Assembly (NCBI GenBank): GCA_963727525.1
Contig: CAVSGO010000007.1
Span: 1,760,001 to 1,824,000 of the forward strand
DNA length: 64,000 bases
Source: an uncultured bacterium
GTDB taxonomy: Bacteria > Krumholzibacteriota > Krumholzibacteriia > LZORAL124-64-63
Direction: 5' to 3'
Position 1 is the stretch's first letter, and the number at the start of each line of letters is the position of its first letter. The notes under the pieces are model-generated. The model saw only the letters and a program-made list of their open reading frames with translations. It was not told the DNA's origin and did not search any database. The position numbers and the translations under genes are program-made. Shown piece after piece: positions 13,519 to 20,860 of this stretch.

Positions 13519-13594
13519 TGGTACGCCGCCGGGGACTCGAACCCCAAACCTAGTGATTAAGAGTCACTTGCTCTACCAGTTGAGCTAGCGGCGC
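13519..13594 (-). tRNA. tRNA-Lys (CTT)
   Basis: Reverse complement GCGCCGCTAGCTCAACTGGTAGAGCAAGTGACTCTTAATCACTAGGTTTGGGGTTCGAGTCCCCGGCGGCGTACCA; anticodon CTT, encoded CCA. Confidence 0.97.
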
Positions 13595-13661: not shown

Positions 13662-13690
13662 AAAGTAGCGCTGGTGCAGGAAGTTGTCAA
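13662..13690 (-). promoter_or_regulatory. Sigma-70 promoter for tRNA-Lys
   Basis: Minus strand TTGACA-N17-TACTTT. Confidence 0.65.
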
Positions 13691-13731
13691 GGATCGCCGA
13701 GGGTTTTCCGGGGCGGGAAGGTGGCCTTTTC

Positions 13732-14373
13732 ATGTGGGAGTTGCGGACGCGCAAGTCGCATGCGCGCAAGGTTATCGGGATCCTGAAAGACGAGTTTCCC
13801 GAGAGCGGGTGTTCGCTGGAGCATGGGGATGCGTGGCAGTTGCTCGTGGCGACCATTCTCTCGGCGCAGTGTACCGATGTCATGGTGAACAAGGTGACGC
13901 CCACCTTCTTTGCGACCTTCCCGACCGTGCGTGATGTCGCGCGGTCCGAGATCGACGAGATCTCCGCGGTGATCCGGCCGACCGGTTTCTACCGGAACAA
14001 AGCGAAGTCGCTCAAGAAAGCGGCGGAGGCCGTGCTGGAGCGGCATGGCGGCAAGGTGCCGGGCACGATCGAGGAACTCGTGAAGCTGCCTGGCGTGGGG
14101 CGCAAGACGGCCAACGTCGTGCTCGGCGAGATCTGGAACAAGCCCGAGGGCGTGGTGGTCGACACGCACGTGGGGCGCATCGCCTACAAGCTCGGGCTCA
14201 CCGACCAGACCGACCCTGGGAAGATCGAGACGCAGCTCGCCGAATGCGTTCCTCCCGACGATTGGCGTGATTTCGGGCATCTCCTCATCGATCATGGTCG
14301 CAAGACGTGCAGGGCACGAGCGCCGAGGTGCGATGAGTGTCCGCTGTATCGGCTGTGCGAGGTGCGGGGCTAG
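13732..14373 (+). CDS. nth: Endonuclease III
   Basis: ILSAQCTD, HhH motif LPGVGRKTANVV, VDTHV and Fe-S motif CRARAPRCDECPLYRLC. The start could be upstream at 13684. Confidence 0.95.
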   Translation: MWELRTRKSHARKVIGILKDEFPESGCSLEHGDAWQLLVATILSAQCTDVMVNKVTPTFFATFPTVRDVARSEIDEISAVIRPTGFYRNKAKSLKKAAEAVLERHGGKVPGTIEELVKLPGVGRKTANVVLGEIWNKPEGVVVDTHVGRIAYKLGLTDQTDPGKIETQLAECVPPDDWRDFGHLLIDHGRKTCRARAPRCDECPLYRLCEVRG

Positions 14374-14432: not shown

Positions 14433-14888
14433 CTAGAACGGCAGATCGTCGTCGTCGATGGGACCGCTCTCCATGGGCGGGGCCTCGAAGCCACCTTCCG
14501 ACGGAGCGCTTTGACCGCGGCTCTCGCGCTGCGGGCCGGGCGCGTCGCCCTCCTCGCGGCGACCGAGGATCATCAGATCCCGCGCGACGACCTCGGTCGT
14601 GTAGCGCGTGTTGCCGTCGCGATCCTGCCACTGGCGGGTCTCGATGCGGCCCTCGACGTAGACCTGCTTGCCCTTGCGCAGATACCTCTCGGCGCGCTCG
14701 GCAAGGTGACGCCAGGCGACCACGCGGTGCCACTCGGTGCGTTCCTGCCACTCGTTGGTGCTCTTGTCCTGCCAGCGTTCGCTCGTGGCGATGCGGAGAT
14801 TCGCCACCGGGGTGTTGCCCTGGGTGTACTTGATCTCGGGGTCCGCGCCCAGGTTGCCGATGAGGATGACCTTGTTCACGCTTGCCAT
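14433..14888 (-). CDS. ssb: Single-stranded DNA-binding protein
   Basis: MASVNKVILIGNLGADPE, ERTEWHRV and C-terminal DDDDLPF. Confidence 0.97.
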   Translation of the reverse strand: MASVNKVILIGNLGADPEIKYTQGNTPVANLRIATSERWQDKSTNEWQERTEWHRVVAWRHLAERAERYLRKGKQVYVEGRIETRQWQDRDGNTRYTTEVVARDLMILGRREEGDAPGPQRESRGQSAPSEGGFEAPPMESGPIDDDDLPF

Positions 14889-15008
14889 CGAGGCTGCCTC
14901 CAGTGTGTGGGCGGACGGGCCGCCGGGTGCGCGGGAGGTGTCGGCTTCGCCATGCCACCTGGCGAAGATCGTGCCGACTTGCACCGGGAGCGGTACGCGA
15001 GAAAAAAA

Positions 15009-15085
15009 TGGGGTGGATGATGGGACTCGAACCCATGACCGCCTGGACCACAACCAGGAGCTCTGCCACCTGAGCTACATCCACC
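15009..15085 (-). tRNA. tRNA-His (GTG)
   Basis: GGTGGATGTAGCTCAG...CCTGGTTGTGGTCCAGG...GGTTCGAGTCCCATCATCCACCCCA; G-1 and C73 present. Confidence 0.96.
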
Positions 15086-15102: not shown

Positions 15103-15179
<77 letters not shown>

Positions 15180-15262
15180 ACCGTTCGAACCGCGCGGGCG
15201 GAAGGCGAATAATCGCTTCGATCGCGCGGCCTGTCAAGCGGCCCGAGGCCGTCTGCGAGGGC

Positions 15263-15339
15263 TGGTCGGGGCGACAGGATTCGAACCTGCGACCCGCGGC
15301 TCCCAAAGCCGCTGCGCTACCGGACTGCGCCACGCCCCG
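15263..15339 (-). tRNA. tRNA-Pro (TGG)
   Basis: CGGGGCGTGGCGCAGTCCGGTAGCGCAGCGGCTTTGGGAGCCGC...GGTTCGAATCCTGTCGCCCCGACCA. Confidence 0.96.
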
Positions 15340-15439
15340 ACCCGGTCCTGACGAAGCGTCCATTCATAGTGGCCGCCCGCGGCGGTGTCAATACCGGGCG
15401 ACCGCCTCCGCCCGATCCGTGCGCGCCAGCTGACGCCGC

Positions 15440-16459
15440 CTACACATACGTCTGGCGCACCACGTCCAGCAACCGGCGCAGCGCGTGGCCGCGGTGGCTG
15501 ATGGCGTGCTTCTGTTCAGGAGCGAGCTGGGCCAGCGTCAGCTCGGTGCCGTCCGGGATGAAGATCGGGTCGTAGCCGAAGCCGCCCGTCCCCACCGGCT
15601 CGGTGCCCACGTGGCCCAGACAGCGTCCCTCGGCCGCCATCTCCAGCCACACGGCCTCGGCCAGAGTGCGGCCAGGGGCATCGGCGGGCAGGCCGCTGGG
15701 TGCCACCATGGTGGGCGGCTCGTCGCCGGCGGTGGGGCCGTTGGCCGTCCACAGGCGCGGGTCCGGCAGTCGCACGGCACCGGGGGGCGCATCAGCGGGA
15801 CGGCCGCCCTTGAGCATGGGCGTCACCAGGCGGTCGACGATCTCACGTAGGCGGTTGACGTCGGCCCCGCCGTCCACCATCACCGCACGCATGTTCATGC
15901 GGTAGTTCTGCCACACCTGGTGGTGATTGGAGAGCCGGTTCCAGTAGGCGTACTCCTCGTCCGGGTGCTTCACCTCGATGGCGCGCGCGAATGGATTGTG
16001 CAGCCAACGCGACTGAGCGCGGCGCGGCACCTCGGCCTCGCCGCCCAGTGTGACGCGTGGGCGCGGGTCGACCCACACCACGGTGGAGCTGAAGCGAGCC
16101 TGGCGGCGGCCGGCGGGCACGTGCCGCATCAGATCGAGCACCTGCTTCACATTGTCGGCGTAGCTGGCCTGCGGGCCGGCGAAGCGGGAGGCGAAGACGT
16201 CGGGCATGTCGTTGAGGACGCGGACCTGGAACGTGGTGTCGTCGGCCACGGCGATCTCGCCGGTGTATGCCGCCGTCTCGATGGCCTTGCGGCTCGCGTT
16301 GCCCAGAGCCGTGGTGCCGTCCTCGATGACCTCGGGCAGCCCCTCATAGTCGAGAGCCGACACGACGTCGAACGGCAACCCGGCACACAGCTCCCGCATC
16401 TCGCGCACCTTGTCCTCGTTGCGACTGGCGATGACCACCTTGCGCATCGTGTTTGGCAT
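15440..16459 (-). CDS. rdgB: Non-canonical purine NTP pyrophosphatase (RdgB/HAM1) with a large internal insertion
   Basis: IASRNEDKVRE, NASRKA, ADD, GFGYDPIF and KHAISHRG; canonical position after rph; 339 aa against about 200 aa typical. Confidence 0.88.
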   Translation of the reverse strand: MPNTMRKVVIASRNEDKVREMRELCAGLPFDVVSALDYEGLPEVIEDGTTALGNASRKAIETAAYTGEIAVADDTTFQVRVLNDMPDVFASRFAGPQASYADNVKQVLDLMRHVPAGRRQARFSSTVVWVDPRPRVTLGGEAEVPRRAQSRWLHNPFARAIEVKHPDEEYAYWNRLSNHHQVWQNYRMNMRAVMVDGGADVNRLREIVDRLVTPMLKGGRPADAPPGAVRLPDPRLWTANGPTAGDEPPTMVAPSGLPADAPGRTLAEAVWLEMAAEGRCLGHVGTEPVGTGGFGYDPIFIPDGTELTLAQLAPEQKHAISHRGHALRRLLDVVRQTYV

Positions 16460-16478
16460 ACTTCCGCCTCCGTTCTTA

Positions 16479-17216
16479 TCAGATCGACAGCACCTTGCGC
16501 TGCAACTCGTTGATCTTGGTGATACCGGCCGCCGAGAGGTCGAGCATGCGATCGAGCTGGGCGCGCGCGAACGGCTGGCGTTCGGCCGTGCCCTGGATCT
16601 CGATGAGGCCACCACCCTCGGTCATGACCACGTTCATATCGGTCTCCGCGCGCGAGTCTTCCTTGTAATCAAGATCGAGAATCACCTCGCCATCGACGAC
16701 CCCCAGGCTGATGGCGCCCACGAGGGAACGCATGGGGTGCTTGCGTAGATCGAGGCGCGCGAGGGCGTCGTAGAGGGCGACGGTGGCGCCATTGATGGAG
16801 GCGCAGCGGGTGCCGCCATCGGCGCGCACGACATCGCAGTCGAGGGTGATGGTCAGCTCGCCGAGGGCGTGCATGTCGGTGACGGCGCGCAGGGCGCGAC
16901 CGATCAGGCGCTGAATCTCCATGGTGCGGCCGCTGGGCCCGCCGCTCGCCTCACGGCGCATGCGCTCGTCGGTGCTGCGCGGCAACATGCCGTACTCGGC
17001 GGTGATCCAGCCCTGGCCGCCACCCTTGAGCCAGCGCGGCACGCCGTGGGCGATGGTGGCGGTGCACACCACGTGCGTGTTGCCCATCTCGATGAAGCAC
17101 GACCCCTCGGCGTGCGGCAGATAGTCGCGGGTCATGCGCGTGGCGCGCAGCTGGGTGACGGCACGTCCGCTCGCCCGTCCGATCGTCGCACCATTGTTGC
17201 CTGTGTTATCGCTCAC
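16479..17216 (-). CDS. rph: Ribonuclease PH
   Basis: [47 protein letters not shown] and [12 protein letters not shown] overlap with murI. Confidence 0.96.
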
Positions 17217-18073
17217 GTGGCCTCGCCCTTCCCGGCTTGGGACAGGCGTCCCTCGCCCTCGAGTTCGTCCAGGTTCACCGTCATCACGTCGGCGATGGGG
17301 CGGCCGAGGAAACGCTCGCCCACCTCGGTGAACTTCCAGGGGATGTCGCTCAGATAGTACGTCAGCCGGCCCTCGCCGAGAACGGTACGGCAGAGGCCTG
17401 CGGCCGTGAGGCGCGTCTGCGCGGCCGCGGCCAGGGCCTCGGCCGAGTCGACGAGGGCCACGGCCGGTCCCATGAAACGCGCGATGAGCGGCTTGAGCAA
17501 CGGATAGTGCGTGCAACCCAGGATGAGGGTATCCACTCCGTCGTCGCGCAGATCCGTGAGGTACTCGCGGCACGCCAGCTCGGTGAGCTCGTGCTCCAGC
17601 AGGCCCTCCTCCACGAGCGGGACGAAGAGCGGGCACTCGCGCGCCACCACGCGGTTCTCGCCCAGCGCGGCGGCGAGGCCGGCCTGGTAGCGCCCGCTGC
17701 GGATGGTGCCGCTGGTGCCGATCACGCCCACCTTGCCCCCGCACGTACGCTGCAACGCTGTCTGCACGCCGGGTTGGATCACGCCCAGCACCGGCAACGG
17801 GCAGCGCGCCTCGAGGAACTCGAGGGCGAAGGCGCTGGCCGTGTTGCAGGCCACGACCACCATCTTCACACCGAGCGACAGGAGGAAGCGCGCATCTTGC
17901 CAGGCGAAGGCCTGCACCGTGCGCGCACCCTTGGTGCCGTAGGGCACGCGGGCGGTGTCGCCGAAGTAGATGAGATCCTCTTGCGGCAGGCGCGCGTGCA
18001 GGGCGCGCAGCACCGTGAGGCCGCCCATGCCCGAATCGAAGACGCCGATGGGACGTTTCGCAGCTTCGTTCAT
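17213..18073 (-). CDS. murI: Glutamate racemase
   Basis: [24 protein letters not shown] and LGCTHYP. Confidence 0.97.
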
Positions 18074-18742
18074 CTATTGCCACCTCCGCAGATCGAAGGG
18101 GCCGTCCATCACGAGATGGCCGCTGAGCGTCTCCACCTGGGCGCCGTCCACGAGGACGCGGCAGGTCACGAGGTCGGGGAAGTTGAGGGCCACGGTGCGC
18201 AGGATACTGGTGATCGTGGCCAGCTCGGCCGCGCTGCCGCCGGGATGGCGCGTGACCAGCTCGGCGCTGAAGTCGAGCACGGCGCTGTGCGCCTTCGCGT
18301 CGATGAACACCGACAGCGGCTGCGTCTGGCTCGGCAGCGCCGAGATGGCGCCGCTGATCGTGGGCCCCTTGCATAGCTCGCGCATCAGCCCGAGCAGGTC
18401 GCTCTCGGCATAGCCCTCGCTCGGGATACGGCGCTGCTCGGTGACGTAGCCGGTACCATCCCACTCGGGAAAGACCATGAGCACGGTGCGATCGCCGGCG
18501 GGCGGCGGCGCCTCCTGCGTGCTCTCGGGCAGGGCGCCGAGTTCGGTATCCAGCGATGACGACGAGCGGCGCAATGAGCGTAGCCCCACGACCACGGCGG
18601 CGGCCGCCACGGCCACCAGCAGCCAGATCAGGACGCGGCTCGTGCGGCCATTCTTGCGCAACGGCGCGGGACGCCGGCTGCTCGGGCGCGGGCGGCGCGG
18701 TGAGGACGACGGCTGACGGGACGGCGGCGTCTGGTCGCTCAT
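18074..18742 (-). CDS. GerMN domain membrane-anchored protein
   Basis: N-terminal TM helix, LCKGP, LDFS, HPGGS, SILRT and VDG...TLSGH; typical amiC-GerMN-murI context. Confidence 0.85.
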
Positions 18743-20379
18743 CGCCCACCACCTCCGGCCGCGGCGCCCTGGCTGGCCGCCTCCGCCATGCGGTCGCGGT
18801 ATTGCAGGATCGCATCGCCGATGGCGCCGGCGAGCGAGTGCTGGTAGTGCGAGTCGTTGAGGCGTGTCTCGTCGGACGGGTTGCTCAGGAAGCCCATCTC
18901 CACCAGCACCGCCGGCATGTATGCGCCCACGAGCACGCGAAAACCGGCCTGGCGCACGCCGCGATCGGGAAGGTTGAGGCGGTCGCTCACCGTGTGCTGG
19001 ATGGTCTCGGCCAGGTCGCTGCTGCTGCTGATGAAGCGATTCTGCACCAGTTCCCAGACGATGAAGTCCACGTCGTCGTCGCCGCCGTCGCCGTTCTCGG
19101 CGACCTCGACGCTCTGGCTCCAGTCGGTCTTGGCCGGCGACAGGAAATACGTCTCCAGACCGGTGGCGCCCTGCGAGAACCAGCCGTTGCAGTGCAGGGA
19201 GATGAAGAGGTCGCCGCCGGCACTGTTGGCGATCTCGGTGCGCTGCGCGAGGGGCACGTGCTCGTCGGAGTCGCGCGTGAGCACCACGTTCAGACCGCCC
19301 TCGCGGCGCAAGTAGCTGGCGAGCTGCCGCGCCATCTCCAGATTGATCGTCTTCTCCTGAGTACCGCCGGGACCGGCCACGCCGGCATCGTTGCCGCCGT
19401 GTCCGGGATCGATGACCACGGTCTGCACCGTGAGCGCGCGCGACACGTTGATGGGCCCCGTGTCGAAGGCCACGCGCGCTTGGCCGCGCGGCACGGGCTC
19501 GGGCAACGCGGTGGTCTGCTGCTCCTCCACGGTGAGCGTGATGGTGCGGCCGTCGTCGGCTGTGGAAGTGCGGTACTGGGTCACAAGGTCGTCGACACGC
19601 ACGATGACGACGGCATAGCCGTCGGCCTGGCGACTGTGCACCGACCGCACGAGCCCGCGTGGCTCGCCCATGGCGACCCGCGACGGGTCCACCACGCCGT
19701 CGTAGATCTTCAGCTCGATGGTGCCCGGCTCGGGGCTGGTGGCGCGAAAGCTCAGCGGGGCTCGGCAGGTGATCTGCAGATTGGCGGCCCGCGTGAGCTG
19801 GGTGACGCGCAGTCCGGTGATGCTGGCGTCGATGGTGCCGAGGGTGAGGCGGCGTGCATCGGGGTCCCAGGCGATGGACTGGCCGGTGCGCGGCCCGAGC
19901 ACCTCGGTGACGAAGACGACGGGCAGCCAGAGGTCGCCCTCGGCGGCCACCACGGGTACTGGCAGGAGCAACTCGCTTTCGCCCTGAACCACGAGGCGGC
20001 TGCCGGCCATCACGCGCAGGCGCACGTCCTGCACCACCAGGGTGAGGCGCTGGGTAGGTGCCTGCCACAGCCGGCTGGCCTGCACGACGTCGGCGAGGGT
20101 GGCGGAGCGCAGATACATCTCCCGCGAGCCGGCGACGATCTGCCGGCCGGCGATGGTGCGCGTCTTGCCGGTGGCGCGGTCGGCCACGGTGATCGACTGG
20201 TTCGCGGCGTCGAGGTCGAGGTGACGCCAGGCCAGCGGGTCATCGAGTGTGTTGGGCGTGGCCGCCGGCGTGTCCTGCGCGCGCGCGAGCGGCGCGCGGA
20301 CGAGAGACGTGCCGAGCAACAGCGCCAGACCGAGCGCAAACAACGCCAGCAACCTCCGTGTGCGGCATACGGGTGCCAT
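18739..20379 (-). CDS. amiC: N-acetylmuramoyl-L-alanine amidase (Amidase_3) with N-terminal AMIN-like region
   Basis: [17 protein letters not shown] and [12 protein letters not shown]; signal peptide; GGAGG RBS. Confidence 0.9.
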
Positions 20380-20386
20380 CGTCCTC

Positions 20387-20860
20387 CTAGCCGCGGCGAC
20401 CGGTCTCCTGCGCGATCCGCCGCTCGACGTCCTTCTTGGCCTTGTCCTCGCGCTTGTCATACAGCTTCTTGCCGCGCGCCAGACCGATCTCCACCTTCAC
20501 GAGCCCCCGCTTGAAGTAGATCTTCAGCGGCACCAGTGTCTTGCCGCCCTCCTCCAGCTTCGGGCCGATCTTGCGGATCTCGCGGCGCGTCAACAACAGC
20601 TTGCGCCGGCGAAACGGTTCGTGATTCTCGCGATTGCCCATGTCGTAGGGTCCGATGTGCAGCTTCACCAGCCATACCTCGCCGCCCTTCAGTTCGGCGT
20701 AGGAATCGCCCATGTTCACGCGTCCACCGCGAAGCGCCTTGACCTCGGTGCCAACCAGGACGATCCCCGCCTCCCAGCTGTCGAGGATCTGGTACTCGTG
20801 GAAGGCCCGGCGGTTTCTGGCGATGAGCTTGATCCCGCTCTCGTCGTCCTTGCGGGCCAT
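20387..20860 (-). CDS. smpB: SsrA-binding protein
   Basis: NRRAFHEY, GIVLVGTEVKALR, RKLLL and ARGKKLYDKRE. Confidence 0.97.
   Translation of the reverse strand: MARKDDESGIKLIARNRRAFHEYQILDSWEAGIVLVGTEVKALRGGRVNMGDSYAELKGGEVWLVKLHIGPYDMGNRENHEPFRRRKLLLTRREIRKIGPKLEEGGKTLVPLKIYFKRGLVKVEIGLARGKKLYDKREDKAKKDVERRIAQETGRRG

Follow-up and report, generated by a model that had tools for sequence, protein, structure and literature searches.

The window analysed here is a 64,000-nucleotide (nt) stretch of a contig from an uncultured bacterium of the Krumholzibacteriota (GenBank assembly GCA_963727525.1, contig CAVSGO010000007.1, positions 1,760,001 to 1,824,000 of the forward strand); all positions below are those of the window. 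It carries an rdgB gene for a Ham1 pyrophosphatase of 339 amino acids (aa), in which the long beta-hairpin of the fold is interrupted at its turn by an insert of ~137 residues. The insert has a single origin, in the common ancestor of one Krumholzibacteriota family, and it has no detectable relative. The catalytic residues are intact, and the predicted structure of the whole protein is one confident body. The protein is probably the single housekeeping RdgB/Ham1 pyrophosphatase of its cell, with the usual active site and unchanged chemistry, the insert serving as a structurally integrated buttress or cap.

To our knowledge, the RdgB/ITPA enzymes of all organisms are compact, with a single domain and ~200 residues. 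The window RdgB is enlarged by two thirds through a nested piece without a detectable relative, and this piece has been fixed for the whole history of one bacterial family. It is an unusual variant of an ordinary enzyme rather than a new system, and nothing so far points to a new function.

Position and anatomy of the insert

The coding sequence and the parts of its product are as follows:

15440..16459, minus strand: rdgB coding sequence (P0001), 339 aa plus stop, ATG at 16459
16064..16459, minus strand: N-terminal Ham1 core, residues 1-132, with N14, K17, E46, K58, D73-D74 and the changed loop N83-D-M-P-D87
15653..16063, minus strand: clade-specific insert, residues 133-269 (~137), at the turn of the long beta-hairpin of the Ham1 fold
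15983..16009, minus strand: conserved motif R151-W-L-H-N-P-F-A-R159, which includes the modelled beta-strand 149-154
15809..15964, minus strand: helical part, residues 166-217 (helices 166-176, 179-192 and 201-217), with W173, W183 and the G198/D200 turn
15749..15769, minus strand: motif L231-P-D-P-R-L-W237, with P232 and D233 invariant in a 67-row alignment
15668..15703, minus strand: Pro/Gly-rich strap A253-P-S-G-L-P-A-D-A-P-G-R264, with G256, A261, P262 and G263 invariant in the same alignment
15440..15652, minus strand: C-terminal Ham1 core, residues 270-339 plus stop, with the hairpin return strand 270-284, F294-G-Y-D-P298, K317 and S321-H-R323

The ATG lies inside an uninterrupted open frame (15440-16615, minus strand) and is preceded, 8 nt upstream, by GGAGG. 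Pfam Ham1p_like (PF01725) recognizes the product at 155.2 bits (gathering cut-off 22.5; E 2.4e-45) in two stretches: the best, residues 8-138, corresponds to profile positions 1-129 of 186, and the second covers ~127-185. The alignment to E. coli RdgB (1k7k; E 2.8e-33) is split in the same way, query residues 4-136 pairing with chain residues 22-157 and 277-335 with 159-217, so that ~140 query residues stand in place of one hairpin-turn residue. The limits were set at residues 133 and 269 because the modelled strands 120-131 and 270-284 flank the insert, the latter being the returning strand of the hairpin. The original prediction, made from the letters alone, had described an in-frame insert of ~135 aa in RdgB/HAM1 at 15647-16063 (residues 133-271). 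The insert itself is borne out by the split Pfam match, the 1k7k alignment and its presence throughout the family, and the coordinates agree with those given here within two residues. The strings that it quoted (ARFSSTVVWVDP, RWLHNPFARAIEVKHPDEEYAYWNRLSNHHQVWQNYRMNMR, LPDPRLWT, AEGRCLG, GFGYDPIF, DDTTF, DMPDVFASR, ADD and SHR) were each located in the translation.

The model gives the order of parts within the insert. A variable linker (133-148) leads into strand 149-154 (RWLHN) and three helices; a variable loop then precedes LPDPRLW (231-237), and a second variable loop precedes the conserved strap APSGLPADAPGR (253-264). In 65 full-length proteins, conservation reaches 95 % or more at 16 of 134 insert positions, compared with 48/131 and 20/70 positions in the two core parts. 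Over 153 pairs of 18 genes, amino-acid identity is 0.64 for the core and 0.42 for the insert. The G+C content of the insert is like that of its surroundings (0.69-0.75).

The Ham1 core

The residues expected of a working enzyme are all present. N14, K17, E20, E46, N54, K58, D73, D74, R119, F123, F294-G-Y-D297, K317 and S321-H-R323 are invariant in 31 RdgBs, 19 bearing the insert and 12 canonical ones from sister families. By analogy with RdgB/ITPA structures, N14, K17, E46, K58, D73/D74, FGYD and K317 are presumably the base-, phosphate- and metal-binding residues. Only one Ham1 gene is found in the 4.66-Mb genome (96.7 % complete), both Ham1 matches falling in the rdgB frame. A sole Ham1 gene in its ordinary position, with every conserved active-site residue, suggests a working pyrophosphatase for inosine, deoxyinosine and xanthosine triphosphates (ITP, dITP and XTP). 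The SHR signature and the role of its arginine are described in PMC8833965.

Thirteen core positions are fixed differently in the insert family: S12, T49, G53, R57, T62, E68, I69, D87, F93, W129, P134, G324 and Y338. Among the changes seen only in the insert form are G87D, which falls in the GGAPG loop, Y/W93F and L129W; the loop as a whole reads N-x-L/M-P-D in place of GGAPG, again only in the insert form. The original prediction had singled out the motif DDTTF...DMPDVFASR as a departure from the usual one. The G87D loop change is indeed peculiar to the insert form; the 'DDT' in place of 'DDS' is not, being a phylum-wide trait, and the canonical RdgBs of the sister families read ADDTGL.

Distribution and origin of the insert

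An insert profile (A3, 11 rows) was searched in 208 genomes of the phylum. It matches once per genome in 78 of the 90 other members of the window's family and in none of the 117 genomes of the phylum's eight other families. The insert is thus present, in frame and stop-free, in 79/208 genomes, all of one family. The 12 family genomes lacking a match comprise ten with no RdgB match at all (completeness 59-90 %) and two in which the gene is cut at contig ends; none of the 90 was seen to have an RdgB without the insert. Conservation across the lineage, which the original prediction had proposed to check, is therefore family-wide and stops at the family boundary; the absence from close relatives by which it might have fallen was not observed.

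A word-indexed search with residues 130-280 recovered 66 other protein clusters of 233-461 aa, all with PF01725 and 36-68 % identical over the region. The relatives that bear names come from metagenome-assembled genomes; their labels are Candidatus Krumholzibacteriota, Krumholzibacteria or Krumholzibacteriia, or simply 'uncultured bacterium' or 'uncultured Fibrobacteraceae bacterium'.

These data bear on whether the insert is real and functional at all. In size it approaches a mini-intein, and its in-frame position within a conserved enzyme is one that an intein, a mobile-element remnant or an assembly error might also take. Such an origin is exceedingly improbable given 79 independent family assemblies, in which the insert is 37-54 % identical to that of the window (18 members sampled). 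The insert begins with Arg-Pro, has no terminal His-Asn and no Pfam match, and shares the G+C content of its surroundings. No second copy occurs in the genome, and the insert resembles neither the core nor itself. The 79 assemblies rule out an assembly artefact. The N-side junction is also bridged by a 151-nt contig from an unrelated metagenome run, which spans 15976-16123 with 4 differences.

A maximum-likelihood tree was built from 195 core columns with the insert removed, for the 19 insert-bearing and 12 canonical sister-family proteins, and was rooted at the midpoint only. All insert-bearing rows fall on one side of a branch with support 100/100.

Some public gene calls for these proteins (P0045, P0068, P0072, P0074, P0079 and P0080) are frameshifted or chimeric. 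Past the insert, P0045 slips out of frame and continues through a tRNA-like stretch; in P0072 the RdgB is fused to an N-terminus unrelated to it. They are probably assembly or gene-calling errors in metagenome contigs. In three salt-marsh metagenome runs, short contigs cover pieces of 15300-16700, in most cases with 85-99 % identity. The sampled-word shares are small (0.04-0.12), and the contigs give only a hint of the habitat of the relatives; no RNA run is listed among the sequencing runs that match.

Search for relatives of the insert

The insert alone has no Pfam match at E<=10 and no PADLOC match. Its best PHROGs match has E 0.063, and the best match of its profile to the sequences of the Protein Data Bank (PDB) has E 6.8. 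The ESM Atlas gave no usable match. The profile was then run with hmmsearch against 1.84 billion representative proteins, giving 18 matches at E<=0.001. Thirteen are insert-bearing RdgBs, or their fragments or frameshifted calls; two (P0074 and P0080) are gene calls with pieces of the insert joined to something else; and three (P0070, P0082 and P0078) are repeat proteins that share a short motif only. P0025 and P0032, also among the 18, are PF01725 proteins. Neither a free-standing form of the insert nor another architecture was seen among the 1.84 billion representatives. Fold searches with the low-confidence model of the insert alone returned generic helical matches (VIA best Z 5.4 over 48 residues; Foldseek best E 1.8). 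Profile and fold searches of the kind that the original prediction had called for matched no known domain, the fold searches within the limits of that model. In listings of open-access papers and bioRxiv, no description of an insert-bearing RdgB was found.

Two specific origins were considered and rejected. Internal duplication is ruled out by hhalign, which gives a probability of 0.1-0.2 % when the insert is compared with either core part (N or C) or with halves of itself. An intein is ruled out by the junctions: the insert starts at R133-P134 without a nucleophile and ends at L266-A-E-A269, followed by V270-W271, without His-Asn, and it has no Hint or intein match in Pfam. The original prediction had already noted the missing intein ends, and the start, the end and the Pfam scan agree with it.

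Predicted structure and packing

The whole protein was modelled with AlphaFold2 from the 67-row alignment, with a mean predicted local distance difference test score (pLDDT) of 89.4 and a predicted template modelling score (pTM) of 0.90. Taken in blocks of 10 residues (131-270), the insert has pLDDT 76-94 within this model. The core superposes on S. aureus Ham1 (4bnq_B) with Z 22.2 and a root-mean-square deviation of 1.7 A over 192/192 residues; other fold matches are 1vp2_A (Z 20.8) and human ITPA 2i5d_A (Z 16.7), and Foldseek gives target-normalised TM scores of 0.85-0.90 to E. coli and Coxiella RdgB.

Folded alone from a 19-row alignment, the insert reaches only pLDDT 62.1 and pTM 0.43, with only helices 166-217 confident, although the shallower alignment (19 vs 67 rows) may explain part of the poor fold. 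With that caveat, the difference is a sign that the straps would need the core to take shape. In the model the insert appears to fold with the core as one body, and it may not be an autonomous domain. The 'novel accessory domain' of the original prediction can be kept in part: the piece is real, conserved and without a detectable relative, but the word domain may claim too much.

Covariation in 65 sequences gives a hint of where the insert packs. The top insert-core pairs are 108-248, 105-251, 60-197, 65-258 and 52-238. They join residues 248 and 251 to helix 100-110, and residues 197, 238 and 258 to helix 51-66. The plausible core strand-neighbour pairs 78-122 and 81-124 are also among the top pairs, which suggests that the covariation carries some real signal. 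Core changes peculiar to the family are concentrated at residues 49-69, 87 and 93. Together these hint that the insert may pack on the N-terminal catalytic lobe, against helices 51-66 and 100-110 and the former GGAPG loop. In the description given by PMC5075207, two lobes on a long central sheet flank the ITPase cleft, and the N-terminal one holds the catalytic site, close to the periphery.

The same source describes ITPase/RdgB proteins as homodimers with the substrate cleft beside the dimer interface, and the insert could instead make or reshape an oligomer interface, for example by joining two of the usual RdgB dimers. Its conserved motifs, rich in Pro, Trp and Arg, are of a surface type and would fit such a role. 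The monomer model of the whole protein is already confident without a partner, and a role in assembly is considered unlikely.

Role of the insert

The enzyme is proposed to hydrolyse non-canonical purine nucleoside triphosphates (ITP, dITP and XTP) to the monophosphate and pyrophosphate through the usual Ham1 site, in the Mg-dependent reaction of its family. In the ancestor of the family, the long beta-hairpin turn would have gained ~135 residues. The gained residues would now be fixed as a short strand (RWLHN), a three-helix bundle and two Pro/Trp-rich straps (LPDPRxW and APSGLPxDAPGR). Rather than forming an independent domain, the insert would be packed against the N-terminal catalytic lobe, buttressing or capping it, and would at most tune lobe closure, stability or assembly. 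The analysis shows that the insert exists, is conserved, arose once and lacks relatives, that the catalytic residues are intact and that the protein is confidently modelled as one body; the enzymatic activity, the packing site and the role of the insert are what we infer.

Several points weigh against this reading. The activity is a prediction from the sequence and the model. The packing site is taken from covariation of only 65 related sequences and from the positions of substitutions, and the shallow alignment behind the insert-alone model tempers the argument from folding. The conserved straps and the invariant Arg, Asp and Trp exceed the needs of a passive spacer. Synonymous sites are saturated (Nei-Gojobori; median proportion of synonymous differences, pS, 0.47 in the core and 0.56 in the insert over the 153 pairs of 18 genes), so the ratio of nonsynonymous to synonymous substitution rates (dN/dS) gives no usable estimate of selection. 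The protein falls below the NCBIfam equivalog cut-offs (NF011397, 162.4 vs 234 bits; TIGR00042, 118.1 vs 145.35). The stem leading to the insert clade is long, at 1.01 + 0.22 changes per column vs a median tip of 0.29, and together with the 13 changed core positions it would also fit a functional shift.

A functional shift would make the insert a lid or wall over the nucleotide cleft, altering the nucleotides accepted or making activity dependent on a ligand or condition. Besides the long stem and the low equivalog scores, it draws on the location of the core changes (G87D in the loop before the conserved Arg92; positions 49-69 in the K58 lobe) and on the conserved charged and aromatic residues of the insert. 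However, all canonical base-, phosphate- and metal-binding residues are invariant, which also bears on the altered substrate range that the original prediction had suggested, and the only Ham1 gene in the genome must fill the housekeeping role. Splitting of the domain by the insert is by itself enough to lower whole-protein hidden Markov model scores; the shortfall goes with an insert-split domain and a core on a long branch. A shift of function is judged rather unlikely, and the reading of a housekeeping enzyme with a buttressing insert is preferred.

It is likewise conceivable, though rather unlikely, that the insert adds to the catalytic lobe a new module for regulation or docking, which gates nucleotide-pool cleaning by ligand, oligomer state or partner docking; the partners may be replication, repair or RNA-processing proteins. 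If so, nucleotide-pool cleaning by the sole ITPase of these bacteria would be conditional. We know of no such control in any RdgB/ITPA enzyme. If the insert is only a structural buttress, its interest is local, to protein evolution and to this phylum. In either case it provides a clean molecular marker for a Krumholzibacteriota family known only from metagenomes, and a tractable case of how a large insertion becomes integral to an old fold and whether a housekeeping reaction gains control by it.

Comparison with known Ham1 proteins

The solved bacterial Ham1 proteins, E. coli RdgB (YggV; 1K7K, 2PYU, 2Q16), S. aureus 4BNQ, Coxiella 3TQU and Thermotoga 1VP2, have the same alpha/beta Ham1 fold and share N..K, E-D-G, K58, ADD, FGYDP, K317 and SHR with the window RdgB. 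Where the E. coli protein makes its hairpin turn (chain 157 to 159), the window RdgB has ~137 residues. The canonical GGAPGxYSAR reads NDMPDVFASR here, and the first motif, ATGNxGK, reads ASRNxDK. From every solved or described member found, the window RdgB differs by its nested conserved piece of ~137 residues.

The canonical RdgBs of the other Krumholzibacteriota families (L015-L029) belong to the same phylum and share with the window RdgB the rph-rdgB gene order (5/5 checked), the catalytic residues and ADDT. They are encoded by frames of ~200-230 aa with a short hairpin, and they keep GGAPGxx(S/A)AR and Y/W93. In these sister-family genomes the gap between the two matching pieces is 6-108 nt, on one contig, in 15/16 cases; in 1/16 the pieces fall on two contigs. 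Three RdgBs of the family f4, L016 (G032), L020 (G037) and L024 (G027), have at this tip of the hairpin another, unrelated insertion, ~20-27 residues long, for example a helix-like PAD..R..A stretch; the large-insert profile matches none of 23 f4 genomes. From these sequences the hairpin tip seems to be a permissive, repeated insertion site in the phylum.

Two other kinds of enlarged protein invite comparison. Mini-inteins in housekeeping enzymes are likewise in-frame insertions of ~135 residues that leave no foreign trace at the DNA level. Unlike them, the window insert has no Cys, Ser or Thr as first residue, no terminal His-Asn and no Hint match, and it is part of one compact predicted structure. 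The proteins of NCBIfam NF002698 (a 328-position model) also hold a Ham1 domain within more than 300 residues, query residues 7-133 aligning with profile positions 129-256. Their extra part precedes the Ham1 domain, whereas that of the window RdgB is nested inside it, and the window protein scores 122.6 bits vs a cut-off of 301.

Gene neighbourhood

The genes upstream of rdgB are as follows:

16479..17210, minus strand: RNase PH (rph); Pfam RNase_PH 1e-27, RNase_PH_C 1.9e-13
17213..18073, minus strand: glutamate racemase (murI); Pfam Asp_Glu_race 2e-28
18074-18700, minus strand: GerM-domain protein, upstream of murI; Pfam Germane 3.4e-11
18739-20460, minus strand: long frame with a cell-wall-amidase-like look, upstream of murI

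The order murI-rph-rdgB and the length of 339 aa given in the original prediction are confirmed, the order by Pfam and the length by translation. The two genes rph and rdgB share a strand, with 19 nt between the stop codon of the first and the start of the second. This closeness could mean that the insert docks a partner, be it RNase PH, a polymerase or a repair factor, and viral Ham1 proteins are reported as partners of RNA polymerases (PMC8893687). However, rph is also the gene immediately upstream of rdgB in 5/5 insert-less sister-family genomes; the two were therefore neighbours before the insert arose, and independently of it. The insert, moreover, was found in no other protein context among the 1.84 billion representatives. 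The coupling to RNase PH put forward in the original prediction is not supported, and partner docking in general is very improbable.

The GerM-domain and amidase-like frames suggest a cell-wall gene group that runs into murI-rph-rdgB. On the other side, just downstream of rdgB, lies a cluster of tRNA genes with two adjoining genes:

15263-15339, minus strand: tRNA-Pro(TGG)
15103-15179, minus strand: tRNA-Arg(TCT)
15009-15084, minus strand: tRNA-His(GTG)
14433-14900, minus strand: single-stranded DNA-binding protein (SSB) gene
13684-14373, plus strand: endonuclease III (HhH-GPD) gene
13519-13594, minus strand: tRNA-Lys(CTT)

With endonuclease III and SSB beside the tRNA cluster, the rdgB neighbourhood holds other DNA-maintenance genes. 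A 68-aa frame at 15157-15363 is a mere translation through the tRNA genes. Between 12000 and 20000, very long open frames overlap the real genes, for example a 778-aa frame through rph and murI (16479-18815, minus strand). They arise because the G+C content is ~70 %; rph and murI proper are confined to the stretches with Pfam matches.

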